64,000 nt of DNA from the NCBI GenBank assembly GCA_043821445.1, contig JBDRCT010000017.1, positions 5,679-69,678 on the forward strand, in the 5' to 3' direction. Shown in pieces: positions 5,101 through 35,272 of this stretch. The position numbers and the translations under genes were made by a program. This DNA is from Candidatus Omnitrophota bacterium (GTDB lineage Bacteria; Omnitrophota; Omnitrophia; Omnitrophales; Aquincolibacteriaceae). A model generated the notes under the pieces. It saw only the letters and a list, made by a program, of their open reading frames with translations, was not told where the DNA came from and made no database searches. Positions within the stretch are counted from its first letter, which is position 1, and each line of letters begins with the position of its first letter.

Positions 5101-8100
5101 AATACTTCCTGAGCGAGCTCCTGTTGGCGACTTAGATCGGGCAGCACCTCTTCCAGCGTCCGAACTTCAGACCGGCCAGGAGGAGTTCTGAGATTCCCAT
5201 ATTGATCAACGTCCGCCACATTTTTCGGTTCTTCCATCTTCTTTGGAAGTCCAAAAAAGCGTAAAACACGTCCCAATTTTTTCACACGCGACGAAGTTTT
5301 TTCATTTTTGGAAATGTAATCAGAAACGTTATACATTAGCTTGTAAAGCTGCGTTGATGGTGTCAAATCAGCTTTAATAGCCGCCTCTTCAACACCAATG
5401 TAGCCGCGGATAAATTCCAGCCAATGTCTAGCAGGTGCCATCAAAAGGAAAGGCGCTGCCAATAAAAACCCTGTCAATGCAGGGATCACAAAAACCATCG
5501 GTAACGCAAACCAGAAATAGACAGCCGATGCCGCGCTCATCTTGAGAAAAACACCGGCCGCGATCATAAGCCCGACCCCGACATTGAACCCCACGTGAAA
5601 CAGGACATTCGAAATTCTCATACTCCAGCCGGCAAACCATCCCAAGGTGCCTTTCTGCTCTTTTTTGGTTTCGCTATCTGAAAACATATCGGCCTTCATG
5701 CTTCTGTAGACATGCACCCAGAACAGACCGAGCCTCTTGATGCCGCCCCCCTTAAAACCGAGTCCTTCTTCAAGGTCGGGATAGCCGGCCGGCAAATTTT
5801 TGAACTGGTCCAGCCAGACATGCCAACCCGCCATGGACCAGGACCAAAGGAACGTGATACCGAAGACGAACGTGAACAAATTACTGTGGAACAGAACGCC
5901 GGAAGCGATCGCGAGGAGCGCCGCGACAAAAGCCGGACTGTAGAACATGTAAGTGCGCAGCAGGCTCTTTGCGCCATCAATCTGTCCGGTCCCGAACGAA
6001 GTGGCCCAGGGCAGCTGCTGGTCACGCATCACAATAAAGATCATCCGGGTGAATTTAACGGTATAGCGCAGCACCAGATAGCTGATCACGAACGCCGTAA
6101 AAATAGGATGTGCCGCTACCAAAGTCCCCAAGATGCCCGTGATGCCCCAGGGTGATAAAACACTCCATGCCGTCAGTTTTGCCGCAAGCACCGCGGCACC
6201 GGACGTAAAATGCCAAAACACGAAATTCCCGTTCATAACATACCAAAAGAGAACGGGAATACCAAAGATCATCGCGGGTTTCGAAACCCATTGGATCAGA
6301 TTCCCGATCACGGTGCCGATCGTCAAATGCCAGCTCCTGCTAACATTCTGGGAACCCTGCATAAAGAGCTTCCAGGGGTTCTCCCAGAAATTGCGCTTGA
6401 TATGGAGAAAAGTATCCGCCAGTCCGGTCGTGGTCCCTTTATAGAGCAGCATGACCTTCCCCCAGGTCTGGCCCTGAATGCTCCCAAAAAGCACGGGGAA
6501 AACGATGACGACGAAAAGCACGCCGATGAAGAGCAACCCCACCACCGGGAACGGGAGCACCACGAAAGCCGGAAGGAATTTTGCCGTCAGGGTGATACTC
6601 GCCCATACTAATGCCACGACCATGGAAGTAAATATCACGCCGTTCATCTTTTTAGAGATCCTGGTCCATTCCAGAATCAAGGCAATCATGAAAGAACCCA
6701 ATAACATGGCCGCAAGTACGACCGTGAACGGGAGCCAAGCCGGCCAAAGAACGCCGACAACCCCCAGCAGCGCCACCAAAAATCCCGGCATTAATAGACG
6801 CTGTATAATATTAAGAGCTTTTTTCCCGGAGAGTTGTTCCGCGTCCGCCGCTGAGCGGCGCATGAACCCGGCGATCAGGAGCGCGACCACGATCCCGATG
6901 ACCACCCCCACCCAGAGCTGGGGCATAACACACGACGTCATCAGGAATTCGGTCGACCGCGGCACCATGATCGTATACATGTTCGCCATCCCAGATAGCG
7001 AAGGGTCAAAGAAAAACCGTTTGATGACCCAGAAACCGAAGATGATCGGGTTGATGTATCCGAGCACCGCCACAAAGCTCATCCAGCGGGCCGCCAAGGG
7101 AACGCCCGGCTGGAAAATATCATACACACGCATCAGGTCGCCCTGGGCCCAGCGTACGAAGCTCCTGCCTTCCATTTCGAAGAACGTAGGTGTGGAAGGT
7201 TCGAGGATCGCGGCATTGTCCACGAACACGGCTCCCGTCGTGTCCCCTTCCTTGTAGTCGTGGCTCAGTTCCTTGATCGTCACGACGCCGAAAGACCCGG
7301 CGCTCTTGCCCGAGACCCATAACCCCGCAAACAACCCCAGCATTTGTCCGATGGAGAATTGAACCATCAACGGAGCGCTTAACAGGAAAGAAAGAGCCCC
7401 CGGAACGAAAGGAAGAGCACTTGGGATGAGAGGAAGAACAAATGACAGAAGAGAAAACACGATGGGCCCGGCCGCGATACCTGCCAGTGTGAACACAAGC
7501 ACCGTCCACCACCGGGAGGGCATGTTGCGCGCATCTCCCGTATGGTAATGGCTGTGAAGATTGACCAGCGCCTTGCCGGTAAAATTCCCCCGCCCCCGGA
7601 TCAACTGCAGGGCGTGCGCGTAAAAAACGCCGTGATTGCTCGCGAAATCGTTAAGCATCGTAAAAAATGTCCGGGCCGTCCTTTCCGTGACGACTTTCGT
7701 CCTCGGGATGATAATGCCCGCCCAATTATGTGTACTGCGGGCGACCTCCACCAACTTCCGGACGACATTGATGAAGGCCTTTTCGTTCGGGTATTCCGGA
7801 TTGTCGGGATTGTCCCCCAGACGGTTCTTATTATCCATCGTGAAGATATGCTGGGTACCCTCGGGATTTGTCGTGAACAATTGAACGCGGCGGCCTTGTG
7901 AATCCTCTACTGGAGCAAGTCGACCATTTTCATCTCTTTCCGGCAGACGATTCCTCAGTAAATGGTCCGGATCAAACCCGCAAATTGAATCCTTGGTATA
8001 AAGATCATCGGCAAAATAGCGGGTTCCCACTTTATTCGGTTTCAAATTCGCCTTGTGCTGTTTGTAATTCATGATCGCGCGGCCCGCAAAATATCCCATC

Positions 8101-23100: not shown

Positions 23101-26009
23101 GATTTAAAGCGATAGCCTTGTGCGTACCGGTAGAGCGTAAAACGGACTTTGACGAACGGGGTAAGGGCAACACTTGTTCCGTTGTTCACTTTGTCCATGA
23201 ACCGGCCCCAAAAGACCCCCGCCTTTTTGAAGATCCCCGGTTTTTCCTGAACCGCGGGAACTATTTCTTCAGCCGGTTTTGCTTCGGGTACCACGGGCGG
23301 TTTTGCTGGCGTTACTTCTGCGGCTTTCGGGGCTTCGGCTTTGGCGGCAACCTCCGCCTCGCGCTTGGGAGCTGCTTTCCGTTCAGCTACGGCGGCTGCC
23401 TCGGCCTCCCTGGCAAGAGCTGTTTTGCGTTCGGCGATCACTCCATTGATTGCATCCATCGTGAGCGAAACGGTATCTGTCGTGATCTTAAGTTTTGCTC
23501 CGAGGCTTATCGCCTCACGAAGCACGGGGATCTTCGCTTTGATCGCCTCCGGGCTGGAGCGCGAAAGAAGCCGCAGGATCACGCTACCGGAAAGATCTTG
23601 AGTGCCCACGCCCCCCTTTTGGGGATCCAGGGCATCCAATTTCGCTTGAAAATTTCTGTTCAGTAAAAGTTTCCTGAAAGCTTGTTCTGCGGCCTTCTGC
23701 TTATCAACATTCTCCTGGGGTTTCGGATCCGCAAAACCCGCGGCATGAAAAAGTCTTAGATTCTTTTCATAAAGGGCTTGCTCATCAGCATTGGGTGTCG
23801 GAGTAACCGGCAACCGGGCTTCCGACCGCGCTACGGCAGAGATCGCTCCCATTTCCGCCATCAAGCCCGGGACAATTTCCTTCGGACCAGCATTCCGCGC
23901 AACATCTGCGACAGCAGGCGGAATCCTGAGCTCACCAACACCTTGATAAAAAGTAACTGTCAAATTATCGCCCAAGCGGATCTCCGACCTTTTGCGGACA
24001 CCTAACTGAACTTCGCTTCGTCGCACCGCCGGATCAGAAAAAACGGCGACGGTCGCACGCAGTTCAGAACGCCCTCCCTCAGGGATAAGAACAGGAAACC
24101 AAACTTTATTCCCGTCTTGGATCGCTACCGACGGCAAAATTTTATTCATAAAGTCGCGAGCCTCTGTAAAAAGTCCCGCGAGCGCCTCGCGAATTGAGGA
24201 CAGTGCAGTTGCACCCCGGAACACGCTCACGGTGGACACAAGCTGCCCATATGTTTGGGCAAATGTAAGATTCTCCCCCGCTCCGATCTGGGATGTCGTC
24301 GGAATTCCATTCGGCGCAGACAACTGGAAGCGCGGATCATTGAGAACGCCGGTCTTGGGTTGAAGGAACGCTTCCGAGAGAACTTTTTCGATCGGGAGCG
24401 GCGTTTCGCGGAGCGCGGCGTCGTAAAGCGCGCTTTCTTTTTTCTGGTCGATCGCCTTGGAGATGCGCGGGGCAACGACGATGTAAGAAAAGCCCTTCTC
24501 CTGAAGGTACTTTTCGATCCCGGGCGTATGGAACCCGCCTGTGATGATGGCGGAGATCTTCTGCCCGGAGGCAAGGGTTTTCTCAACCGCTCTCTCGACC
24601 AAGACCTGGTCGCGTTCAAGCGCTGCTTGATAGAAGCGCTCCACACGCGGCAAGTCCTGATCGAGGGTCTCCATCTGGGACGGCAATCCTAGGGAGAAGT
24701 GATACTTCTGGGTGAGCGGTTTGAGAAAACTTGAAAAGGTTCCGGCTTTGAATTCATCTTGGTGAGTGTAATAGAACTCGGCGTCCTGCTTGGTCAAAGT
24801 AAAATCGAACATTTTGTTCATGACATCATAGATACGCATGAGATGATCCAGCTTGATCTCTTCCGGCGTCGTAAAAAGTTTGTTCTTAACGTCTTTTTCG
24901 AGGACCTCGATCTCATCAAAAAGGGAAACACCGATCGAATCGTAAAGCACCATGTACTGGAAGTAGGCAAGGACATTAGCGTATTGCTTGGTCAGGTCCC
25001 TCCCTCCGGTCTGAGTCACACTGATGCTACGGATCTCATCCTGAAGGTATCCGTAATAGGCGACGCGTTTCATCTTCTTCATGCGGAAGTGGACGGTGTT
25101 GGTCAGGAAACGGGAAAGTTTTTCGCGCGAAAGAACGCCCTTAAGATCGTTAATGAGTTGATCAGTCTCTTTTTCGGCCTTGTCGAAATCGATCTGCTTT
25201 TCAAGGTCGATCAGCTGGATCAGGGACTGCATCCCGCTATAATTCTCCGGCTTGAGATCATGCTTTTGGGCCATGCCCACGAGGAAACGGACATAAGCCA
25301 CCAATTCGCGGCCGCTTTCCTGGAACGCCGCGCGGCGGCGATAGAGCTCGCGCATCTCTTCCGGGAACACGAAGCGGCCCATGTACGCCAAAACCTTGTT
25401 AAGCGCGGCCAAGATCTCTTCGTCACGGGCCTTGAACTGAAGCGCGTCCACGTAGGCCTTGCGGTTCTTTTCGTAAAGTTCCGGATCTTCCACGCCATAA
25501 AGTGTCATCACCGGCTTTTCAACGATCGCCAGATATTCCGGGCCGGTGAGACGGCCTTCTTTCAGGAAATAATCCGCGACGCTCCGGCGGGCTTCTTTGT
25601 CCGGGAAAAAAGAAAAGAGCTCGGTGTAAAGCTCGCCGGAGGCGCCTTCAAGGTTCACAAGGCCGAGCTGATATTTTTCCGAAAAATGACGGAGGATATT
25701 GGCGATGTTCCGCTGGGCCTCCTCGTTGATGTGCGCGTCCTGGATCGCGAGGATGATCTGTCCGCGGCTCCCCTTAAAGGAGCTCTTGATCGTTCCGTAG
25801 CTGTCCGGAAGGTCAGGACGATCGATCAGGGAGAGCGCCGCGTTGGCTTTAAAGGATTCGACTGGAGTGAGGCTTGAGGGACTGGACGCGGCAGCATAGG
25901 CTTTAACGCCACCGTCCCAAACGACCGAGGTGAAGGTAAACACACAAACCGTCAGAAGCGCAACGGTCCTAAGCCAAGGCTTAAAACTGTGTGTTTGCCA
26001 ACTGATCAT
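2184..26009 (-). CDS. giant (7941 aa) signal-anchored multi-pass membrane protein of unknown function
   Basis: A single stop-free frame of 23,826 nt. There is a plausible SD (GAGGA) 12 nt upstream of the ATG and an N-terminal hydrophobic anchor (LRTVALLTVCVFTFTSVVW). TM clusters lie at about aa 1075-1170, 1345-1510, 1685-1775 and 5320-5470, and a roughly 937-aa polytopic block of about 20 helices lies at about nt 5440-8250. The protein has long coiled-coil/alpha-helical soluble stretches and an Ala/Glu/Lys/Pro-rich linker (aa about 865-915). An HD-like motif LALAFHDYGRL lies about 500 aa from the C-terminus. Confidence 0.9.
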   Translation of the reverse strand: MISWQTHSFKPWLRTVALLTVCVFTFTSVVWDGGVKAYAAASSPSSLTPVESFKANAALSLIDRPDLPDSYGTIKSSFKGSRGQIILAIQDAHINEEAQRNIANILRHFSEKYQLGLVNLEGASGELYTELFSFFPDKEARRSVADYFLKEGRLTGPEYLAIVEKPVMTLYGVEDPELYEKNRKAYVDALQFKARDEEILAALNKVLAYMGRFVFPEEMRELYRRRAAFQESGRELVAYVRFLVGMAQKHDLKPENYSGMQSLIQLIDLEKQIDFDKAEKETDQLINDLKGVLSREKLSRFLTNTVHFRMKKMKRVAYYGYLQDEIRSISVTQTGGRDLTKQYANVLAYFQYMVLYDSIGVSLFDEIEVLEKDVKNKLFTTPEEIKLDHLMRIYDVMNKMFDFTLTKQDAEFYYTHQDEFKAGTFSSFLKPLTQKYHFSLGLPSQMETLDQDLPRVERFYQAALERDQVLVERAVEKTLASGQKISAIITGGFHTPGIEKYLQEKGFSYIVVAPRISKAIDQKKESALYDAALRETPLPIEKVLSEAFLQPKTGVLNDPRFQLSAPNGIPTTSQIGAGENLTFAQTYGQLVSTVSVFRGATALSSIREALAGLFTEARDFMNKILPSVAIQDGNKVWFPVLIPEGGRSELRATVAVFSDPAVRRSEVQLGVRKRSEIRLGDNLTVTFYQGVGELRIPPAVADVARNAGPKEIVPGLMAEMGAISAVARSEARLPVTPTPNADEQALYEKNLRLFHAAGFADPKPQENVDKQKAAEQAFRKLLLNRNFQAKLDALDPQKGGVGTQDLSGSVILRLLSRSSPEAIKAKIPVLREAISLGAKLKITTDTVSLTMDAINGVIAERKTALAREAEAAAVAERKAAPKREAEVAAKAEAPKAAEVTPAKPPVVPEAKPAEEIVPAVQEKPGIFKKAGVFWGRFMDKVNNGTSVALTPFVKVRFTLYRYAQGYRFKSAEGLSGISAFTRFAKKDKDLFIHQIRARTLGRTGHSMKEEELLAKIPSLRVDGKTPVRLEDLSLAQLEEVERAIRDLQVEKDFEQRQHMKEQKTLDLRVKSHKGIFYATGLAVGLLTGVGVAALISLAWPVLALGAVIGLMMTKEMANVTFVFIENVKTLFKSGSVAKGLLGVLFVLGAPLYLSIQLMSSFIQKLIYPIMYRIHGTGQRTYFVKIGKDGKVEIDPETGEAIVDVKALTDALNRRLPLVVGQTIEDYLTEKKDAALTALAEKAKELSRQAATTTGDWDQVNKELDQVLAGLPSAEAQRIRTLFDQHIVVQKRLQNVANHLARSDALHARIIRVLHLQNFLAKKITDFLGSKATSAKAVRYVLSDITNPLGAFFQWFVFGRGALFFKGIIAGAFILTGPIGTGIALALFVSYRAYGVYQIRKEKFKETLAAIEGKYGALPKTELNEAQKAAEIKKATRSYRVKTAGSVFGMAAGLGIAGYLLIGAFVAPDLISFIPHNLFSKQVVLKVFGDAVPLSLGTLLKDVFLGMIMAYGGAAKKSRAEHIQEKYFLEPVLKLMRSYGFKTMEASGFFAFSRTEGGKSVSTLTYEGIGQYFDAIGPEQRQEMAKQLGMDEKTFDMFLLSHLEMLRGMIVANVLSLNQNEQLLLLERINGIQAELAGRYTQDEIQKARETGRVLTSSAVDDAVATRMEINRMARYRTLGSGRFYLSGFTTAMGLITLAFEIPAVLHLFGSLDSVANQALKPLGIAEFHGFHTVAMFIERTLLGLFNNVWQGMWSLGGLVPLVAPEVFLNSALARVGTDIADRQVSHDIATLQARMTGMSEGTEAYRTEAGHLAELQAEKVRMTASPALARLDGELRKLPKSSVTALLARQLFSKVTDAVLDPNHAMSLEEMNIAIASVETVIRQAKAEAVQTPAATGEPVKVMQAGMVPNPLPLIEKVFSGIQSLFAPKTAATPQPPVQERSGVPASTTITPAARATEMAAGRVEDAALQREVPTAEAQRTELVTERQAAPAELQKLSTDLQQAVEEGKAALAQEGKAPTPYNIGAWLKANEAKYPKVVEKFQTEVMNNPELAAVMTGAAVPAKFTEQLKGRSLRALTKPVDDIFGPNTSAVLSLVAMTGVAAIGEEAATVTARPAPNVTRAATVETAAVAGPMGAAAEEARRIHDELVSKREEAELRLEESRNGYAQRFANYLTSEITDRITFNANTSDAGREIARSLLGRPGFIKSLADQYVASLRGADGRGDVSKLKAEDLQAGFDELMDQTGGINALTPPEIEMLRNVVREAILQRFSAVTEAKEHTPVTENVTIALPLFNEGQPVSVDKLLEMAIATRMATAGPSKAILDAMAKFQRNDRKFTLSIVARAGTDFIFKGYGVGTEVSFYLSDPTKNERQAIATYREREGLLQMDREMADVVRELRTHGNNYARARILAEKLRLSLEDVRNDEEIAKTRTREGQDTDAAMAIGKLRRQLERDLADRRAELEGILRSIGALVGVTDKKIILPRELEDPKEAAKFFEATAAPAARGQSLDLAAAQGKYALDVLNTSLAEARGKMGILFRTRIFFNPPKAFDFMSPLSSVRDPKTPAMVHMLSREGAALQYYQDAQQIKADEEALRGRLETAVRINGIVQSRLDGAENLLREERQRYRNESGWSMRFKAAVEQYDLAKRQAADTAHQVEQLTIEINRFTSGVSAKLAKFEEDFERDAEKVKKGESRKLFDAEYFAQLEAKYRQSDRPVDATELADNLAGGKNVNLLLEEFRAREVKEREIQMLAGEGIRLKGTVNGVEIKDLQKYEAQLFSEYERATSPKERDLFQKFGDLFRKAPRLPEVIKAEIEKVNKAKLEAYEAVRIEINFSNWIGQIGDIEARIRKAEEVLNSDQSTPEQKEKAAKDLKALHFTLPKVKADLQALKDSHPELKDKKLRDLRIRRFVDGGVEALGVFKAGVGGGLTGTWDFGDMSAQWDFFEQALKESELLQQAHKRDYVKNIIVQRQFLDQIHYRIDVFEGAIMHEQTLLALLEASREKEGVTPEKIKDIDRQIIWGRQRLSSFEEAKTSLESEHNRAEEKMLRIMGRDVEDRKDPGRFTYTPKSKQSFMEGELSEEELGLLSGFDKDIDRKVAEQRVRIQWAMLNTADHKSYKQLHLMVPFISAVPVTTNYVPISEHLDAIIEDPAHIGIGGSGSLRTYSGHLAKDKTLDIAVAEANLRTMFDDYQDFIIRQGLVSQNLDRQVANTKDQKTETRRLIGDLDESISEYEEKEQAGLADAGDRELYTAIRQVNRDDQDDNELIHQLNLRLLQVNRATKGTLKIGAQGRVIDLTTPENLRDFVKSNSDRVADSNEKLAQELRDIQEYGRYLRPLAISTEVFRIPLGFGRGDDFQAGGRVTFDFRELAFSKTQLEIYMARAKQLGLEKEFRRDIRQRLVELAWQDVLRSKAIWDIREQEMQARKEMAAAAQTGTALEDQQALSDAVIRTVTMAKTAERDFEIYVNMLKFIAGIPAEIDIQVPPTNLLQRVYNGEPIGEEVVAKMLKSAAEDPRFQSILRNNDVATAEVKQAEKNRSWTSQVGIFAGYHPSVGAEYTRHLIDRAKTELVNIEKAKKELAVAQQDPLRRAVQMQALEEYAAFVLNRVRLVQIADEFAGSLSFANDATAGYRAIGEPGRTVKTVNDVLAAFDYRENDSLRLTGINFEFQKSLINLSHTTELMGLHEEAQRVQHTARAPLPYQTRQQVALEQLQQAEARIDREAAEVAQLPVPPEPAEAVVDLKVLQKKLGEEKKPPVIEPRTDYRDKNTNEPYVPSVSELWRNMFGADTAVIERGRDGKVVGGLSEPVLVEDVFVRLFDAMRLTPNERLAMFEILKTLSRSGTDGKPSLKEKLNDPDFKKFMAQLPRNEKLGLNYAQLIEGLLSNRTLTAMNQEEANSLLDRNTDLRILGVYVFYATSILKGMKVEDINARSANVPELVQNQFSDRFNSMFSERLKVDFIFLTKLVKNMADQVERNKASPNGQAVPVIAPPQFTSDEIAFLTRDGLLSRLVDIKDRRVDFKAWAEQQKRLGSQEDDAALKRRFVGQVFLDWATYTDRQVSAQPYYKFSTLEDTFQEFNNVRKAVFDLYRANFGRDLGLYGDIKDLADITAWQYMSFMGKLYSPDKGERAKRLNTVILLTNYILENKRVPIVGLNGEPSAADPSAAMLRFLRASAEANQTYADRREVQKEEAGLRTGALMGEVVFRTIQGIEQYAEVHGKSISDALDELGNALPQGIRAGPLGDIRSGIDDYYRKAPEILKALDASRLFSRALNMKDPRDSGQVSAWYEYGTRYHLTIDELKQIIEVAGKLYPKLQELYGRDFRLDQGGKVSANMGIVMAHAQFILGVTDWHKEAAQYREDFRQGKLLSQFQLDTMWDYEKWETMGGVNAPIGTRIDARIKEYERRLDLMDKFAKHPKAFKGAEEIFKILYGSSYQYSIREPEEQQGVAFGHIMNEAYIAERDHIPYDRLAQRYENIVKLIDSPAFTDYLRALKVIGENQDLRTLLPELAKDKTPEGKAKLTKLMGRLTGAAKDLPADFEAIYAQRGKVLKLLVDQHGQDFEGFSTWLKSHYGNVTVAYPEETPRTIEQIEKDLYLFLQRSKYAEVINRNPAWKAQIDAIIDTEASENFPGAFVEGIVAGMPDMLKARGLDITKDDPASLAKLRTFFDNFFLIVGKFDRYPVVQDAGSLNMERKIIGLQESLMIADPDLAGVLQAQSTLPLLQRVSAGRMLVGTASFWLGRVMDSEAQRNAATPNYWLSRQAPGWAAKMIPEWLSKMVEENKYPESEEQYVDMKKVETVIIPRAKAAWEAYHGILEPMGYSITKADIMSVVLNTKEIEKVSDIQEYFEQCQLMLALALGRPDLIPGQYKSMIPEEKLSRKPGEKQITLEQQNLGRPLAFNEMQGYVIEFRRSLKMRHHSIVAPGYNGPSLAVQKMVTKFIFVEPSDPSKTYLNVAASAEGQDAFRGKYALPGSDLQQMADKRGALWEALPEGEKARTALLLSTTFLSRWPVDPQLADKDFFHFLMGLGKNVKDLQRLQEIARLGQDLEGSFRDEFFARNGKDLTYDRKMLEDASQFRRFLILRLMTRPVVLATPADFEQGFEARLQAKKTVPANRIPELVKYYVDNNHLFGALNAGSLQKLRDIKDENQLNLMVNDLKTLMQEIVVGDRLAMDPNRLLNSILSLHQDKTVATFKNFEENMLRKYLQLAAEKQEPLQPEDAGAPEQFVQGLSEKLSLGLTKEQQDAWIQGLGRGLLSPAQVRVVLTDLAWFRGEQQDIPADLRVQDDSLLRFIAAGRDMPLVHAGVIADRKPVFYSQEQLEVLGQLAGAQGVELAKQYESYFADNYVLSSNTRIQEETKGGKARPKLSDFLTERGSRTRQMGEFWSAWSVILPIFSVITTIFVLIAAFAVRQLRKAGKIKVPVLDHAGNPVLREEFQYERTGMLPRSEMRQLFSRLISTEEETMDPALAARNREVRREPLGKEYAPPYLTLRGAVMLLVHGAFVGLFLLMSWQVLELTNSNIFWNVIDLFESGWMAFMLSHILTAWLAGRIFPKSMTMGEQSRVRGVLAKIFPKLVKMRPSAASRDAIERPELDLLVLKATAKPEAKTEAEQPPKSSDSKGNLPPYIEKEDGTRVYLKPADRHDLSFTVVEEKDGEEVQREVSLKTEEGQKRQALPPGHKTSIAYFNFDSFPPPQESMKDAAGKPMKDAADKPVIDHTIRLWLLEMFKAHASIEYIKEQFKIEFGVDIDKKNNEGGWQDFFFLKNVIDSLAYNLDPYGRTTLLILAEKEYSKVIKKAGKNDANAILQFEFIKAALEYAREQVIQIGASRFGDGSVYVPNGNGDYTIPGYVYTKDEPTKGARKGDLIPLTRAQLGKALIYYLPLTELHFEKKQGNILSTEDYLMGQDGPPAATELPIPLLRFSGRVNDPVGAAVVNGVALVLTVAGVIWLAPALAVLGPILSSPWIVGAVMWLMGYFAGRAIMNYKQHKANLKPNKVGTRYFADDLYTKDSICGFDPDHLLRNRLPERDENGRLAPVEDSQGRRVQLFTTNPEGTQHIFTMDNKNRLGDNPDNPEYPNEKAFINVVRKLVEVARSTHNWAGIIIPRTKVVTERTARTFFTMLNDFASNHGVFYAHALQLIRGRGNFTGKALVNLHSHYHTGDARNMPSRWWTVLVFTLAGIAAGPIVFSLLSFVLPLIPSALPFVPGALSFLLSAPLMVQFSIGQMLGLFAGLWVSGKSAGSFGVVTIKELSHDYKEGDTTGAVFVDNAAILEPSTPTFFEMEGRSFVRWAQGDLMRVYDIFQPGVPLAARWMSFVAVLGYINPIIFGFWVIKRFFFDPSLSGMANMYTIMVPRSTEFLMTSCVMPQLWVGVVIGIVVALLIAGFMRRSAADAEQLSGKKALNIIQRLLMPGFLVALLGVVGVLWPAWLPFTVVLAAMLLGSFMIALILEWTRISKKMNGVIFTSMVVALVWASITLTAKFLPAFVVLPFPVVGLLFIGVLFVVIVFPVLFGSIQGQTWGKVMLLYKGTTTGLADTFLHIKRNFWENPWKLFMQGSQNVSRSWHLTIGTVIGNLIQWVSKPAMIFGIPVLFWYVMNGNFVFWHFTSGAAVLAAKLTAWSVLSPWGITGILGTLVAAHPIFTAFVISYLVLRYTVKFTRMIFIVMRDQQLPWATSFGTGQIDGAKSLLRTYMFYSPAFVAALLAIASGVLFHSNLFTFVFGITFLWSWSMAGWHVWLDQFKNLPAGYPDLEEGLGFKGGGIKRLGLFWVHVYRSMKADMFSDSETKKEQKGTLGWFAGWSMRISNVLFHVGFNVGVGLMIAAGVFLKMSAASAVYFWFALPMVFVIPALTGFLLAAPFLLMAPARHWLEFIRGYIGVEEAAIKADLTPSTQLYKLMYNVSDYISKNEKTSSRVKKLGRVLRFFGLPKKMEEPKNVADVDQYGNLRTPPGRSEVRTLEEVLPDLSRQQELAQEVLPGSKQIVATPKTAQSQPEILASQVAAQTPLAVAPETVAASPAVPVAPLVAAIAPSEDVTKLEGEVAALDARIKKTPWQIAGLIGTAIVLSFAGLMWGGLFLVGPVALLLVLASVVGVLWMWIRHSENIKLSDAKAKQLEELKATPAAPMPMRLEVPKVPAEEAQVNPPSLAEVRAPVYVPSREFGIVGTLVPDVVVSLALARSETRVLDVSKEGTIQYDVKLDGLVGGTVEMVFGPVSQAAQDVPAPSAKLLSVSNFSLLPGGPILHEDRIKDINTMIGRWTASMQRGPVALNLIARADAEKALSKVRSEARAVVDNKSRELVGKIHVTSGEMPALQEQLKTRFMANLERIDPARDLEGAEKISAMNNPQDIIDALSPLGLFGWQQDVPIRGAAWQMPDGSTVTFRDHQQVIFNGVKALQANDVSYFRSRNLASVTLDEAGLKAFVDSYNASLSEQEKKLLALALAFHDYGRLITTGPLHPVVGSELVKAILEKLGMDARTVRIVTALTSRELEYGALPWGETVPRKVVEGLPENDIPVFLKLMSFIYILDVAAVGKGKLTSAQLANARYLQSAANLERLQSNWASVRAAGFYEPRDGVILDLSQAIAEEAVPAEIRNELASNPDFKTFMETVTFQRIVYVFREMVRQGNPESVTKLVYALSKLQQLTQTDFISLSVDRKEYATKINELLKMVSFDQLKAADFRMEDGRFVVASEGRTVLEAGIQQSADKKVVVNVESIPARSELRTPEVQPAEQEQSAAAREQEIQRAIAAAAGVQEARFTMQVLPEIVNPLATRIEGRMIESIMQSLNVSVILSLKGNGLHIIEFNPADGFDGAYIAQRVAQSQAGSRFVVIAGQADEAAANEALKGVGKMDLRIGQVNSLLSQAVTEELDRLHIDVATAKANRNVIQAQVTEGVDPSELHAASALLNQFDGVVTVTGSRTKVSSAFQFTVAELLGAAIQAAAAIGKSA

Positions 26010-26039
26010 CGGATTGCCGTCCTCTCTTGAAAGTCGATC

Positions 26040-26500
26040 AGAATTACTCTGTAATTCCCAGCCTTCTTAACCACTATATTAAACTTATTTTAAGACCTTA
26101 ATAACCTCAATAGAAATATACACAACGAAGTCTCCACAGTCAAGGAAACCTAAAAAATTTTTAATGATGTAACCCATTATTAATCAACATGTTATGTAAC
26201 TTTAGAATAAGATTTAACCTTTTTGTTGCTCCCATATAATTTTTTATAGCATTACTAAACAACAAAAAATGCCACTTTTTTTCAGAAATAATATCTGGAG
26301 GAATAAACATATTTAATATATTCATAAAAAGTTCTTTGAAATAAAACTCATTAAAACGGGGGTCCTTTGAATTCGATCGGAGTTAAAACGCTATGGGATG
26401 AACTCTTGCAAGTATGGAGACAGGCAGCACTGGTTTCCCATCTAAAAACTATGAGTATCGGTGCTGACTACGATTTTGAAAAAGAAATGATAGTTTGGAC
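26040..26500. promoter_or_regulatory. AT-rich (about 70% AT) upstream/promoter region of the giant gene
   Basis: Composition shifts sharply from the about 57-60% GC surroundings. It lies directly 5-prime of the giant gene start codon at 26009. Confidence 0.5.
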
Positions 26501-26509
26501 TGGCTAGGT

Positions 26510-26548
26510 GTCAAAATCAAAAAGCCCCCTCGGAAAATTCCGAGGGGC
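26510..26548 (-). terminator. rho-independent terminator (GC hairpin plus T-tract on the minus strand)
   Basis: Stem gccccctcgg/ccgaggggc (26524-26548) with loop aaaatt. On the minus strand it is followed by CTTTTTGATTTT (26510-26523). Confidence 0.5.
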
Positions 26549-26562
26549 TTCTTAATGAAAAC

Positions 26563-26650
26563 TGGACCTGCCCTTGCCTTTCATTTATTTCTAAATGGTC
26601 GGCAGGGCTGTCCCAATACCACTCAATCGAAGCAAAGCGGAGATTGGGGC
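26563..26650 (-). repeat. 88-bp unit, copy 1: tRNA 3-prime octamer CAGGTCCA, an AT-rich -10-like box, then the 41-nt palindromic element
   Basis: Perfectly identical to 26855-26942. It contains tttcatttatttctaaatgg (26579-26598) and gtcccaatacc...gagattggggc (26610-26650). Confidence 0.85.
26610..26650 (+). repeat. 41-nt CCAAT/ATTGG palindromic element (copy 1)
   Basis: gtcccaat...attggggc outer inverted repeat with an inner caatc/gattg pair. Confidence 0.7.
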
Positions 26651-26758
26651 GGCCCTGACTACCGCAAACTCAAAAGAAAATCAAAGCCAGGGCCGTCTCA
26701 AAAATCGCACATGTTATTCAGCGACTTTGTGGACGGGTCTCGCCGCGATTTTTGGCGG

Positions 26759-26768
26759 AAGCTACAGG
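26759..26768 (-). repeat. tRNA-Ala 5-prime fragment (nt 3-12, GCCTGTAGCT)
   Basis: Plus-strand agctacaggc is identical to 27241-27250 inside the tRNA gene. Confidence 0.4.
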
Positions 26769-26779
26769 CGGGAAATTTT

Positions 26780-26816
26780 GCCCCAATCTTTGATTACCTT
26801 TAAAGGTGATTGGGAC
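26780..26816 (-). repeat. palindromic element, reverse-orientation copy
   Basis: Minus strand reads gtcccaatcacctttaaaggtaatcaaagattggggc. Confidence 0.6.
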
Positions 26817-26854
26817 AACCCTAATTCTCATTAATGGTTTATTGAAAATTAGGG

Positions 26855-26942
26855 TGGACCTGCCCTTGCCTTTCATTTATTTCTAAATGGTCGGCAGGGC
26901 TGTCCCAATACCACTCAATCGAAGCAAAGCGGAGATTGGGGC
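26855..26942 (-). repeat. 88-bp unit, copy 2
   Basis: 88/88 identity with 26563-26650. Flanking sequence diverges immediately on both sides. Confidence 0.85.
26902..26942 (+). repeat. 41-nt palindromic element (copy 2)
   Basis: Identical to 26610-26650. Confidence 0.7.
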
Positions 26943-27018
26943 TGTCCTCGTCAGCCATTTGGAAAAGAAATTTCAGACGAGGGCTGGCCCATTTGACCTT
27001 AAATTCCATGGAGAGAAA

Positions 27019-27037
27019 TGGACCTGAGGAGAGTCGG
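27019..27037 (-). repeat. tRNA-Ala 3-prime-end fragment (T-arm plus acceptor 3-prime strand)
   Basis: tggacctgaggagagtcgg matches 27179-27197 of the intact tRNA at 18/19. Confidence 0.65.
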
Positions 27038-27179
27038 CTCCGTTGTCCGTAAAAAACACGGACTCCGGTAGGCCACCCGCCCTTAAAACATGACACCCGT
27101 CATGTTTCAGAACAGGGCTCCCTTCGACTCTCTTTTTATTCAAAAAAAATTCCCAACGGCAAAAACCATTGGGAATTTT

Positions 27180-27252
27180 TGGACCTGAGGAGAGTCGAAC
27201 TCCTGGCCTCTGCAATGCGAATGCAGCGCTCTACCAGCTGAGCTACAGGCCC
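27180..27252 (-). tRNA. tRNA-Ala (anticodon CGC)
   Basis: Minus strand GGGCCTGTAGCTCAGCTGGTAGAGCGCTGCATTCGCATTGCAGAGGCCAGGAGTTCGACTCTCCTCAGGTCCA folds as a canonical 73-nt cloverleaf. It has the G3:U70 Ala identity pair and anticodon loop TTCGCAT. No encoded CCA. Confidence 0.9.
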
Positions 27253-27330
27253 TTGTCTTTCATTTATTTCTAAATGGCTGACAAGGACCTGTCCAATTAA
27301 CCCTTAAGCTTTGAACGAGAATTGGACAGG
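27253..27330 (-). promoter_or_regulatory. candidate tRNA-Ala promoter built from a 43-nt palindrome variant (supplying -35 TTGGAC) and the AT-rich box (supplying -10 TAGAAAT)
   Basis: Minus strand reads TTGGAC, a 17-nt spacer, TTAGAAATAAATG, then caagg, then the tRNA +1. The palindrome cctgtccaatt...aattggacagg is at 27288-27330 and the box is at 27258-27277. Confidence 0.4.
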
Positions 27331-27387
27331 CCCAACAAATTCTAAAACTTAAAATGCTGTGCACCGGAAAGATAAAGCAGGGCGGTA

Positions 27388-28272
27388 TTATACACAATCT
27401 TCGATGATTGTCTTCAAAACATTGAAGGCCTTTTGCTGGTCCCGTTCGTTGAAGAGTTCATGAAAGAAGCCCTCAAAGATCGTCCGTTCCTTGCGGGGAG
27501 CCACGAGACGGTCAAAAAATCTGCGGACCGCGTTGGGGTCCACGATGCGCTCCTCCCCCACCCCAAGCAAGTGGACCGGGAACGGCACCGAAAGGATCGG
27601 CTGTTTTCGCAAGATTTCTGTGCGCCGCTCGAACTCCTCGACCAACTGCGCGGAGATATGGCGAAGGATCAGAGGATCTTTCCGGTAGACGGCGACCTCG
27701 GCCGGGTCATGGCTCAGAGCTCTCGCCTGGACTGGATCCCTGTAAACGATGCCCGGCGCGAAAAAAAGCACCAGACGGTTCAGCGGCCGGATGACCCTCG
27801 AAAATCGAATTCCCAGTAACGGAACGGAAAGGATCAGGAGTTTCACAGGTTCCGGATTTTTCATGGCCCAGTGGATCGCAACGAGACCCCCGAGGCTGTG
27901 CCCGAGCAATATGAATTTTGGGGGGATCGAATGCTTCTTTCGAAGGTGCTCGATAAAGGCCGTGATATCCCCGAGATAGTCTGCAAAAGAACCGACATCC
28001 CCGCGCCTGCCTTCCGACCGGCCCATTCCGCGGAAATCCATCATCGCGAACTGCGCGGAAAGGCGTCCCATTTTGCCGGGGAATTTTTCATAACGTCCCG
28101 AATGCTCTCCGTAACCATGAAGCATGATCACCGTATGCCGCGCCCCGGGTGCCGGATAAAAACAGTAGAAGATCTTCGTTCCATCCCGGCCCTTAAAATG
28201 ACCTTGGATCCATCCCGTGAGAGGCTTAACCAATCCATGGGCCGGGTTGGCGCTGGAATTATCGGGCGACAT
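27388..28272 (-). CDS. alpha/beta hydrolase (lysophospholipase / monoacylglycerol-lipase family)
   Basis: HGYGEHSGRY and the nucleophile elbow GHSLGG. 294 aa. Confidence 0.75.
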   Translation of the reverse strand: MSPDNSSANPAHGLVKPLTGWIQGHFKGRDGTKIFYCFYPAPGARHTVIMLHGYGEHSGRYEKFPGKMGRLSAQFAMMDFRGMGRSEGRRGDVGSFADYLGDITAFIEHLRKKHSIPPKFILLGHSLGGLVAIHWAMKNPEPVKLLILSVPLLGIRFSRVIRPLNRLVLFFAPGIVYRDPVQARALSHDPAEVAVYRKDPLILRHISAQLVEEFERRTEILRKQPILSVPFPVHLLGVGEERIVDPNAVRRFFDRLVAPRKERTIFEGFFHELFNERDQQKAFNVLKTIIEDCV

Positions 28273-28411
28273 CGTATTGATTTTCCCATTTAAAATTTTT
28301 ATGAGACTCTAACGGGGTCCAGGCAGAGGTCATAGCGAGCAAGCCATCAAATCGTTTTCTTCGACGCAATCGGGAGGCGATCCTGAACGCTTCTGGGCCA
28401 TGGGCCTTTTC

Positions 28412-29164
28412 TCAGGAAGCAACGGTCTTTACTTTGTCGACGGTCTTGGAAACCGTCCGAGTCTTTATTTTCTTTTCATCCATGGCGACTTGGACGGCCC
28501 CAATCTCAGCTCCGCTTCGATTGATTGGTATTGGGACCGCACCGGCAGGCATTTCTTTCAGGTCATCGATCGCTTGAGCATTACGCTGGGTCTCTTCATG
28601 AATAATACGCAGTTTTTCTTGCGCCAAGAGCGCCGTCTTCGCGGAGGCTTTCTGTCCGTTCGCCTGTTTCTGTGAGGCTTCCAGTTCGTTCAAGATCTTT
28701 TGATGGATGCGCGCCTGTTCCTGAACCCGTTGAAGCTGCATCGTGCGCCCGTTTTGCAGATTCTTGATCTTTTTATTCAGATCGAGTATTTTCTGGATCT
28801 CTTGACGAATCTGAGCCACCGAAGCGCGCGGCACCGGCGGAGGGGGAACATATCCCGGTTTGAGGGGCACGGCATTCGCAGTTTGAACCGGGGATTTTCC
28901 AGCCGAAACTTGCTTGGTAGCCGTCCTGGTACCGGCCGCATTTTTGGCCTTTTCCATCATCAATTCTTTGCCGGTTTTGCGTCCAAAGAATTGAACGATC
29001 CGGTCTCCAACGGCCTGGGGAGTCGCTACCGAAGATAAGGAGCTTTGTGCCTTGGGCCCTTTGGGAACCGGGGAAGATCGGTTGGGGTCAACGGAATTTT
29101 TGGGAGCCGAAGCACCCAGTTGGAGCAGGAACAGCACTGCGAACCCAAAGCTTATCTTACGCAT
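28412..29164 (-). CDS. secreted coiled-coil protein with a Pro-rich segment
   Basis: Signal peptide MRKISFGFAVLFLLQLGASA, a Q/K/E-rich helical region and a PPPPVP tract. The last about 40 codons run through a palindromic repeat copy. Confidence 0.55.
   Translation of the reverse strand: MRKISFGFAVLFLLQLGASAPKNSVDPNRSSPVPKGPKAQSSLSSVATPQAVGDRIVQFFGRKTGKELMMEKAKNAAGTRTATKQVSAGKSPVQTANAVPLKPGYVPPPPVPRASVAQIRQEIQKILDLNKKIKNLQNGRTMQLQRVQEQARIHQKILNELEASQKQANGQKASAKTALLAQEKLRIIHEETQRNAQAIDDLKEMPAGAVPIPINRSGAEIGAVQVAMDEKKIKTRTVSKTVDKVKTVAS
28496..28537 (-). repeat. palindromic element (reverse orientation) embedded in the 3-prime end of the secreted-protein ORF
   Basis: Minus strand reads gtcccaataccaatcaatcgaagcggagctgagattggggcc. 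Confidence 0.65.
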
Positions 29165-35030: not shown

Positions 35031-35088
35031 TCCGAACAGTTATTCTGCTGGAGGGGCGTATTATACCGATGCGGACGGAAAATGGCTA

Positions 35089-35129
35089 GTCCCAATTCTT
35101 ATCAATTTCAGAGTATCTGAAATTGGGGC
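35089..35129 (+). repeat. 41-nt palindromic element (tandem copy a)
   Basis: gtcccaattcttatcaatttcagagtatctgaaattggggc. Confidence 0.65.
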
Positions 35130-35130
35130 A

Positions 35131-35171
35131 GTCCCAATTCCAATCAATCGAAACGAAGTGGAGATTGGGGC
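35131..35171 (+). repeat. 41-nt palindromic element (tandem copy b)
   Basis: gtcccaattccaatcaatcgaaacgaagtggagattggggc. It is followed by the hairpin atccttgcc...ggcaaggat, whose loop agccattttggaaaa is shared with 26950-26975. Confidence 0.65.
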
Positions 35172-35272
35172 AATCCTTGCCAGCCATTTTGGAAAATAAT
35201 CCGAGGCAAGGATAGCTGAAAAATTAGGGGGAATCTTATTTGGAAGCTGTCAAAAACACGAACTTGGCGCGA

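Follow-up and report, generated by a model that had tools for sequence, protein, structure and literature searches.

Short palindromic repeat modules have probably piled up at a tRNA-Ala gene in a Candidatus Omnitrophota genome

Here we analysed a stretch of 64,000 nucleotides (nt), referred to as the window, from the Candidatus Omnitrophota assembly GCA_043821445.1 (contig JBDRCT010000017.1, positions 5,679 to 69,678 of the forward strand), and in particular its region at 26.5-27.3 kb, which contains a tRNA-Ala(CGC) gene. This region is probably a zone in which short non-coding repeat modules accreted at the tRNA gene, and about 610 bp of palindromic modules typical of Omnitrophota appear, on the weight of the evidence, to have piled up between tRNA-Ala and its original 3' end and terminator. 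The modules draw on two repeat families, one a hairpin (A) joined to a palindrome (B), together called A.B, the other an element called X that ends in a copy of the tRNA 3' end. This reading is carried by the membership of the local hairpins in family A, by modules that are present in some close relatives and absent from others at the same place, by homology between the flank of a displaced tRNA 3' end and that of an intact tRNA in a relative, and by a conserved promoter upstream of the tRNA. The modules would have come in at the 3' end of the tRNA gene, either inserted there or brought in by recombination. An earlier note on this DNA, made by a model from the letters alone, had explained the same features as tRNA promoter copies fused to tRNA remnants.

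A displaced tRNA 3' end

The intact tRNA-Ala(CGC) gene lies at 27180-27252 on the minus strand, where the earlier note had placed it; it is found by both ARAGORN and Rfam (68.7 bits), and it is the sole tRNA found in the window. Reading along the minus strand, the order is an alpha/beta-hydrolase gene (27388-28272), the repeat locus with tRNA-Ala, and an open reading frame (ORF) of 7,941 amino acids (aa) at 2184-26009, the giant gene. In a homology search the hydrolase was 100% identical to a protein of a Candidatus Omnitrophota metagenome-assembled genome (MAG). The locus was compared with seven syntenic relatives (L106-L112; hydrolase identity 62-89%), which makes eight loci with the window. 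Hydrolase, tRNA-Ala(CGC) and giant gene follow one another in six of the seven relatives, and in the seventh, L110, the contig stops about 160 nt past the tRNA. The tRNA-Ala sequence is 100% identical in L106, L108 and L109.

The octamer that ends the tRNA, CAGGTCCA, occurs on the minus strand at 27180-27187 in the gene itself and recurs, as had been noticed before, at 26563-26570 (stub 1), 26855-26862 (stub 2) and 27019-27026; the window holds six matches against 1.5 expected. The recurrence at 27019 belongs to a longer copy of the tRNA 3' end, which is exact over 18 nt (27019-27036 = 27180-27197) rather than the 19 first reported. Behind stub 1 lies the sequence that followed the ancestral tRNA-Ala gene, its native 3' flank with an intrinsic terminator (26510-26562, minus; terminator scan and alignment A4), in which a terminator-like hairpin at 26526-26547 precedes a minus-strand T-run, as the note had also seen. 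The simple state of the locus is found in L111 (hydrolase 67% identical), where the tRNA is followed by gttatctatcaaagcccctc...gaggggctttttt and then by the leader of the giant gene, and neither L111 nor L112 has stubs, A, B or X at the locus. In alignment A4, CAGGTCCA runs into a homologous flank and terminator in all four sequences, namely stub 1 of the window, the stub of L107, the end of X in L109 and the tRNA end of L111. Because stub 1 shares its flank and terminator with the tRNA end of L111, we read it as the original tRNA 3' end, which now (26570-26563) stands 609 bp from the 3' end of the functional tRNA (27180). In the ancestor, as in L111, transcription of the tRNA would have started from a TATAAT promoter where the hydrolase gene ends, and its own terminator would have stood directly after the tRNA; in the clade of the window, 609 bp of modules, each ending in a copy of the tRNA 3' end, would have split the tRNA from the old 3' end.

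The module closest to the tRNA would consist of a hairpin, term1, and X, and would end in the 18-nt copy. Term1 (27137-27180, minus) is a terminator-like hairpin with a T-run (inverted repeat I8, 15-nt arms, 93% complementary) and forms part of the X module; with compensatory stem changes, it also precedes X in L108 and L109. X itself (27019-27135, minus) is absent at this position in L106 and L107. The next segment, flank F (26984-27018, minus), is a degenerate B-like palindrome and, judged from the relatives, the native 3' flank of a tRNA-Ala copy. F directly follows the intact tRNA in L106, L108 and L109, and in the window it follows the 18-mer of X (from 27018). From this placement, term1 and X together behave as an inserted unit of 161 nt with an 18-nt direct repeat at its borders; the 143 nt between the repeats are non-coding and contain no cargo genes.

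A second module would be made of F, an A.B element and an inverted A, and would end in the 8-nt copy of stub 2. Its A.B element (26901-26986, minus) comprises A5 at 26986-26942 (nhmmer E = 8.7e-6) and B3 at 26941-26901 (E = 6.6e-12) and is inserted between F and the next hairpin. That hairpin, A4 (26860-26899), follows TGGACCTG, whose minus-strand reading is CAGGTCCA (stub 2); together they span 26855-26899 on the plus strand. Stub 2 and its downstream flank are kept in L106 (258 nt, 90.7%), as is a short B-like palindrome (26780-26822) with a hairpin (26813-26860) at 26779-26854 on the plus strand (inverted repeats I3 and I13; weak A match).

A third module, ending in stub 1, would contain the 5' fragment of a second tRNA-Ala copy, a decayed copy of a small insert called Y, and again A.B with an inverted A. 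The 5' fragment, GCCTGTAGCT at 26769-26760, leads into TCCGCC... of the decayed Y (together 26700-26769, minus; 21-nt match to L106 and L107); the earlier note had recognised this 10-mer and placed it one nucleotide away, at 26759-26768. The A.B element (26609-26696, minus) comprises A2 at 26696-26652 (nhmmer E = 6e-4) and B1 at 26649-26609 (E = 6.6e-12), and hairpin A1 (26568-26607) again follows TGGACCTG, here stub 1, over 26563-26607 on the plus strand. L106 (6060-6380) and L107 (6074-6307) hold a second tRNA-Ala copy with three inserts, one after GTAGCTCA, one replacing the anticodon loop and one in the T-loop; it ends in a 3' copy and is followed by F. The 10-mer at 26760-26769 is a remnant of the 5' end of a second copy of this type.

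The two units of 88 nt that first drew attention to the region are A1 with B1 and A4 with B3. They form a direct repeat (26563-26656 and 26855-26948) of 94 nt with 98% identity, of which the first 88 nt are identical, as had been reported; the description of the units as tandem does not hold, since the direct repeats are dispersed, at a distance of 292 bp, and what lies between is unrelated to them. The hairpin has a third copy (87% identical) at 27249-27286, against the tRNA 5' end, and the 21-nt loop CCATTTAGAAATAAATGAAAG occurs exactly three times, against none expected. All three hairpins (26568-26607, 26860-26899 and 27249-27288) match the A model on the plus strand, opposite the tRNA. 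Each 88-nt unit is therefore, on the minus strand, B, inverted A and CAGGTCCA, and the pair would be a recent duplication of that composite rather than a fusion of promoter and tRNA end.

The promoter and the 5' side of the tRNA gene

Upstream of the tRNA, a sigma-70-like promoter (AAGACA, 16 nt, TATAAT) was found at 27386-27414 on the minus strand by promoter scan and conservation. Its TATAAT box (27392-27387) overlaps the hydrolase stop codon. The sequence GAAGACAAT(C/T)AT(C/T)GAAGATTGTGTATAAT is kept in all eight syntenic loci, and those two positions alone vary (alignment A5). In L106, L108 and L112 the tRNA begins about 35-50 nt past TATAAT. This promoter at the end of the hydrolase gene is likely the ancestral tRNA-Ala promoter, to judge from its conservation.

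In the window, a module of two palindromes stands between promoter and tRNA. The first, B4 (27289-27333, minus; inverted repeat I11), is a divergent B-type palindrome that starts with GGGCCTGT; this sequence, at 27333-27326, is a direct copy of the first 8 nt of the tRNA. The second, A6 (27249-27288, plus strand, opposite the tRNA; A model E = 2.5e-4), is an A-family hairpin, 87% identical as the D2 copy, whose stem overlaps tRNA nucleotides 1-4. B4 is the 43-nt palindrome that had been taken to supply a -35 element, and A6 contains what had been taken as an AT-rich -10 box. B4.A6 precedes the tRNA in the window, L107, L109 and L110 and is missing there in L106, L108, L111 and L112; where present, its left edge is a copy of the first 7-8 nt of the tRNA. 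In L108 it sits downstream instead, joined to a 5' tRNA fragment. Since the module is missing before the tRNA in four loci and lies downstream in one of them, while TATAAT is invariant, it is an insertion or rearrangement and not the ancestral promoter.

A general link between A hairpins and tRNA 5' ends was not found; by hidden Markov model (HMM), the association is restricted to tRNA-Ala loci. By eye only, A-like hairpins were seen ahead of tRNA-Pro, tRNA-Glu and tRNA-Leu. Upstream of tRNA-Pro, L024 (about 2500-2590), L052 (about 410-500) and L086 (about 1890-1972) share one arrangement, likewise noted by eye: a copy of the first 8-10 nt of the tRNA, then a hairpin or a B element, then the tRNA 5' end in complement, some 25-30 AT-rich nt, and finally the tRNA. 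Between species, a C/T difference in the tRNA recurs in its upstream copy.

Could the locus have arisen simply by duplication and decay? Two or three tandem duplications of tRNA-Ala with its flank would then have been followed by decay of the extra copies through deletion, and REP-like repeats would have landed there and changed the order by homologous recombination, with no site-specific insertion at the tRNA end. The nearly full-length second tRNA-Ala copy with three inserts in L106 and L107 agrees with this, as does the occurrence of F behind the tRNA as well as behind 3' copies. The order of the modules differs between close relatives, and in L108 B4.A6 sits on a 5' tRNA fragment and not on the intact tRNA. 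Duplication and decay would leave unexplained that X stands behind at least 17 types of tRNA, that its repeat of the tRNA has a sharp boundary (14-21 nt, from C56/R57), that it carries an inverted copy of the same tRNA segment, and that a tRNA 3' end closes every module. We therefore regard this account as improbable, albeit one to be reckoned with. Since module order differs among five close genomes, recombination between repeats has occurred as well.

The A.B repeat family

A strict 38-nt B pattern, scanned over one genome per species, occurs at more than 105 loci in at least 20 assemblies, all of them Omnitrophota or unnamed MAGs. Profile HMMs of A and B were built from 108 Omnitrophota copies and gave 151 A and 161 B matches in 722 kb of the strict-pattern loci. 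In the window, nhmmer with these profiles finds eight A and six B copies, some of them at three further sites, intergenic or genic. The stem of hairpin A, about 9-11 bp, varies between copies yet stays paired (1054 of 1149 pairs are Watson-Crick), and its loop is conserved and T-rich, with a length of 22-23 nt in 89 of 118 copies. The palindrome B measures 40 nt, CCCCAAT...ATTGGGAC, and has a covarying inner hairpin, followed by AC-N-R; it is also found in other intergenic regions of the window. Joined by a linker of 2-3 nt, A and B form an element of about 84 nt. The mismatches in A stems comprise 42 G:T and 33 A:C among the 1149 pairs, and this symmetry indicates a DNA palindrome rather than an RNA made from one strand; selection on RNA structure in the A stems was rejected on the same count.

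A.B behaves as mobile DNA, as judged from its presence and absence at orthologous sites in close relatives. One copy of 84 nt (28452-28538, plus) lies inside the 3' end of a hypothetical ORF (28412-29164, minus) in the window and L106 and is cleanly absent from L107-L109. Empty, the site is GGAAACCG|CACCGG, and filled it is ...ACCG[TCC...ATTGGGACCG]CACCGG, and the element replaces the C-terminus of the ORF, which has 250-253 aa with it and 222-224 aa without it. The second site is flank F, which is empty (GGGCCAG|YCCTGCC) in both F copies of L108 (Y = T) and in the first copy of L106 (Y = C), and filled (GGGCCAG[TCC...GGGACAG]CCCTGCC) in the window, in L107 and in the second copy of L106. The trinucleotide before A equals that after B in 63 of 96 copies and covaries with the linker between A and B: CTA/TTG/CTA (flank/linker/end) in 25 copies, CCG/CGG/CCG in 12 and CTG/CTG/CTG in 10. 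A repeat of 3-4 nt (ACCG, CAG) flanks the two filled sites; unlike a plain target duplication, it covaries with the internal linker. The ends of A.B share only TCC...GGA, short of the terminal inverted repeats of at least 10 bp that mark a miniature inverted-repeat transposable element (MITE) of the DDE transposase type. A.B would thus insert 3' of a trinucleotide, CNR, with which both its own 3' end and an internal linker agree, and from the two empty/filled pairs and the covariation we infer an IS200/IS605- or REP-like, single-strand mode of insertion. No autonomous element with an ORF between A and B was seen among the 151 A matches, and no copy has TnpA or TnpB there.

By crude ORF calls, on which all gene contexts given here rest, 87 of 123 A.B copies lie outside ORFs. 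Among 69 elements, those between tandem genes are co-oriented in 31 cases and opposite in 13, and a further 14 lie in divergent and 11 in convergent regions. A role of A.B as promoter of leaderless genes was considered and rejected, given the convergent and opposite-oriented copies and the canonical promoters of these genomes. In nine of the 123 copies (L005, L020, L030, L036, L044, L066, L072, L088 and L093), ATTGGGAC[CT]ATG is followed by a long ORF; the genes include PtsI, MetH and a flavin reductase, with N-termini that look genuine by eye. A GAAAGG/TAGG motif within B lies at Shine-Dalgarno distance, and B may be co-opted as a ribosome-binding leader.

Two side observations concern the surroundings of A.B. 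In L022, L034, L064, L080 and L087 (at least three MAG assemblies), ACTAGCGTGCCTCG...GGCGGGAAGTGTGTTAAGCCACGCTAAGG stands directly after A.B, and it is also seen in L112 at about 4190-4310; the five former loci gave no Rfam match to it at the gathering threshold. In the window, an A.B.B array (35085-35216, minus) lies immediately upstream of a canonical GGTATAAT box and is kept in L012.

Element X behind tRNA genes

X begins with the reverse complement of the tRNA T-loop and of the 3' strand of the T-stem (27135-27126), followed by GAAGGGAGC, a hairpin with AAACATGAC/GTCATGTTT, GCGGGTGGCCTACC, a second hairpin and finally the 18-nt copy of the tRNA 3' end (27036-27019). The first ten copies stand behind genes for tRNA-Ala, Lys, Thr, Gly and Arg. 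In their consensus fold, an outer helix of 10 bp differs from tRNA to tRNA, 11 of the 34 pairs of the fold show double changes, and the three-hairpin fold has z = -3.4. A metagenome scan with two conserved core motifs of X returned at least 120 loci, and all collected sequence together holds at least 140 X cores. Among the matches listed, a tRNA on the same strand ends within 700 nt upstream of 118 of 140 cores, and 95 of these 118 copies carry at least the last 12 nt of that tRNA. The run of identity, among the same matches, is 14-21 nt long (median 18) and reaches from C56 of the T-loop up to the discriminator base; the first 15 nt of X are complementary to the 3' region of the tRNA beside it at 10-14 positions in 114 of the 118, vs a mode of 8-10 with tRNAs of another type. 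X stands beside at least 17 tRNA types. It occurs as tandem X-X arrays in L084 and L159, and paired matches suggest the same for L138, L168, L183 and L186. Of 61 large metagenome loci with X, 12 also hold A or B, and G+C ranges from 29 to 66%; X is on these grounds more widespread than A.B. Between tRNA-Lys and tRNA-Leu, the position of X is kept in L075, L094 and L101.

By its outline, X resembles a T-loop-crossover integrative element stripped to its attachment region, or it could be a structured RNA. Its junction would lie in the T-loop at C56/R57, as in integrative elements that use tRNA att sites, here without a local integrase. An invariant motif, GTGGCCGACCGG (for example at 27074-27061, minus), resembles GTGGCCGAGCGG, which we take to be the D-arm of tRNAs with a long variable arm, and X might derive from a tRNA. 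A permuted, two-piece transfer-messenger RNA was also considered as the source of the tRNA-like 3' fragment and rejected; ARAGORN finds none, and X occurs with at least 17 tRNA types, not only with Ala.

The A.B and X results can also be set against a functional account, in which A.B is a regulatory leader, a ribosome-binding cassette or a protein-binding DNA, X is a companion RNA of the tRNA, whose 5' arm can pair with the T-arm of the tRNA or with its own tRNA-like 3' end, and the cluster insulates the tRNA from the promoter of the giant gene. The nine B copies that stand before a long ORF, with a motif at Shine-Dalgarno distance, fit this account, as do the excess of co-oriented copies between tandem genes (31 vs 13), the double changes and z score of the X fold, and the maintenance of X between tRNA-Lys and tRNA-Leu. 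It is opposed by A stems without RNA-strand asymmetry, by A.B copies that lie in either orientation, between convergent genes and within a coding sequence, by modules whose presence varies between close relatives at this locus, and by the lack of any Rfam family match. As a whole we consider it unlikely. In Rfam 15 at the gathering threshold, the window and 19 loci matched tRNAs alone, and lenient searches of 26300-27500 and of a canonical A.B copy (28400-28600) gave nothing beyond chance-level matches.

Other small inserts were seen in tRNA copies. Element Y is a small palindromic insert, TCCGCC ... GGACGGATCCGTCC ... GGCGGA, with copies in L108 (6140-6177), L106 (about 6289-6363), L107 (about 6217-6291), L025, L075, L079, L014, L084 and L085, and a decayed copy in the window (26700-26759). 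By eye, Y lies in the T-loop or D-loop of tRNA copies and once inside the inverted T-loop copy of X (TTC|GA). The palindrome that replaces the anticodon loop in the second tRNA-Ala copy of L106 and L107, CCTGCC-N4-GGCAGG, is found again in L101, where it interrupts a 5' fragment of tRNA-Leu, and as a hairpin of X in both L101 and L109. A further repeat, GTACGGYGYCGTG-hairpin-CTACGRC..CCGCAC, lies between tRNAs and X in L016, L075, L094, L101 and L159; it ends in a hexamer like a tRNA 3' end, and in L094 it follows both the tRNA and the tRNA copy of X.

The giant gene and the question of an island

Giant genes follow the tRNA in L108, L109, L111 and L112 (7,903-10,357 aa), and in L106 and L107 the tRNA is followed by large ORFs that are cut by the end of the locus or contig. 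A promoter-like site of the giant gene (TTGACT, 17 nt, TATATT; 26115-26143, minus), about 105 nt upstream of its ATG, is kept in L107, L108, L109, L111 and L112. The recognisable neighbouring ORFs are housekeeping genes (such as LepA, signal peptidase and Rpe), and the window has no further copy of the 18-mer, even with three mismatches.

The earlier note was sound in its suggestion of repeated insertion or duplication at tRNA-Ala, which agrees with F joined to the 18-nt copy and with the flank of stub 1 homologous to that of L111. Its model, in which the modules are copies of the tRNA promoter that, fused to the last 8 nt of the tRNA, give rise to a small RNA (about 50 nt) and a longer transcript (about 290 nt), and the stubs mark an island bearing the giant gene, is very improbable: TTGGAC or TTGGGA does lie 17-18 nt upstream of TAGAAA-like loop sequences, the module does abut the tRNA 5' end in four loci and a strong terminator does follow stub 1, but no promoter was found in the hairpins in a consensus scan of 25900-27500, TAGAAA lacks the conserved final T of a -10 element, these genomes use canonical TTGACA/TATAAT promoters, for tRNA genes too, the module is missing before the tRNA in half of the eight loci above which TATAAT is invariant, the hairpin family occurs in all intergenic contexts, between convergent genes (11 of 69) and inside a coding sequence, the terminator is the ancestral terminator of the tRNA itself, and six of seven relatives keep the giant gene in synteny, with no integrase found in the 16 ORFs tested and no far att copy in the window. 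Of the signs of an island, the displaced tRNA 3' repeat joined to a native flank is present; cargo and a variable giant gene are not, the 16 ORFs tested hold no integrase domain, and relatives show the same stubs as a conserved feature, which the note itself had counted against stubs as marks of mobile DNA.

Discussion

Several points weigh against accretion of mobile modules at the tRNA gene. The 16 ORFs tested, which lie to either side of the giant gene and the tRNA, have no integrase or transposase domain, and tblastn with three Y1-transposase queries found no match in the 829 kb of collected sequence, which is about 1-2% of each genome. The fixed distance of B from at least nine start codons and the conserved core and covarying helix of X indicate that some copies may be functional, not selfish. 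The tRNA origin of stub 2 is less certain than that of stub 1, because CAGGTCCA beside an inverted A resembles a junction motif of the family (GGAC + NNG). More than one order of events would account for the modules, and homologous recombination between repeats could yield much of the variation in module order.

Accretion remains the probable reading, and several known systems offer parallels. Repetitive extragenic palindromes (REPs), including BIMEs and REPINs, are mobilised by RAYT Y1 transposases. Like them, A.B consists of short palindromes in many copies, mainly extragenic, clustered in both orientations and occasionally within genes, with presence that varies between related genomes and stems that vary with compensation. 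Some A subfamilies begin with CGTC or TGTC, which recalls the CGTC-tagged REPs. For the latter, no transposase is known (Di Nocera et al. 2013, PMC3733652). A.B differs from REPs in its loop, 22-23 nt and conserved rather than 4-5 nt, in the lack of a GTAG tag, in being a composite of two hairpins of about 84 nt, in a sequence kept across at least 20 species of a phylum where REPs are species-specific, and in that the three Y1 queries found no RAYT in the 829 kb. Miniature IS200/IS605 elements (PATEs), which move by guide-directed single-strand transposition, are similar to A.B in lacking terminal inverted repeats, in having a hairpin near each end and, as it seems, in inserting 3' of a short target, which in A.B equals its own 3' trinucleotide and covaries with an internal trinucleotide at the foot of the hairpins. 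The target of A.B is just 3 nt (CNR), and no TnpA or TnpB was seen between A and B or in the 829 kb.

Elements that target tRNA genes with a tyrosine integrase reportedly cross over in the T-loop and are said to have non-autonomous derivatives, the CIMEs. X is like them in leaving an intact tRNA and a displaced 18-nt repeat from T-loop to discriminator base, in that the displaced copy keeps the native downstream flank, and in its tandem arrays. It is unlike them in its size of about 100-160 nt without integrase or cargo, in having one core for at least 17 tRNA types, and in its inverted T-loop/T-stem copy, which classical att sites do not need. By analogy only, X recalls the attC sites of integrons, which are defined by structure, with an imperfect palindrome, a variable centre and pairing outer arms, and the serial insertion at one point in units that all end in the same core recalls an integron array; here there is no IntI, attI, R'/R'' consensus (GTTRRRY) or ORF cargo. 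Rickettsia palindromic elements (RPEs) are repeats of about 100 nt that lie within protein and RNA genes and do not destroy them, to which the A.B copy in the 3' end of ORF 28412-29164 and the inserts in tRNA copies are parallels; their sequence is unrelated, they belong to another phylum, and most copies here are intergenic. Searchable literature on Omnitrophota repeats, on REPIN/RAYT and tRNA, on repeats downstream of tRNA genes and on miniature T-loop integrative elements gave no match to A.B or X.

A more far-reaching proposal, which we advance tentatively, is that X represents an undescribed class of miniature elements (about 100-160 nt, no protein gene) that attach at the tRNA T-arm with their specificity written in nucleic acid, namely a structured core and an inverted and a direct copy of the tRNA from R57. 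X could then be directed by structure or by a guide and be retargetable to any tRNA, or it could be a dedicated companion RNA of the tRNA; A.B would be a second, guide-directed family of single-strand transposons, for which no transposase is known. If mobile, X would amount to compact, nucleic-acid-specified targeting of tRNA genes, and if an RNA, to a new kind of tRNA-linked transcript.

The AT-rich loops of palindromic repeats can mimic promoters, and partial tRNA copies can mimic the att sites of islands. At least two repeat families are defined here, A.B throughout the Omnitrophota and X widespread in metagenomes, on contigs with 29-66% G+C. In the annotation of these little-known, uncultured bacteria, they account for tRNA pseudo-fragments, for some extended ORFs and for many of the orphan hairpins between genes.

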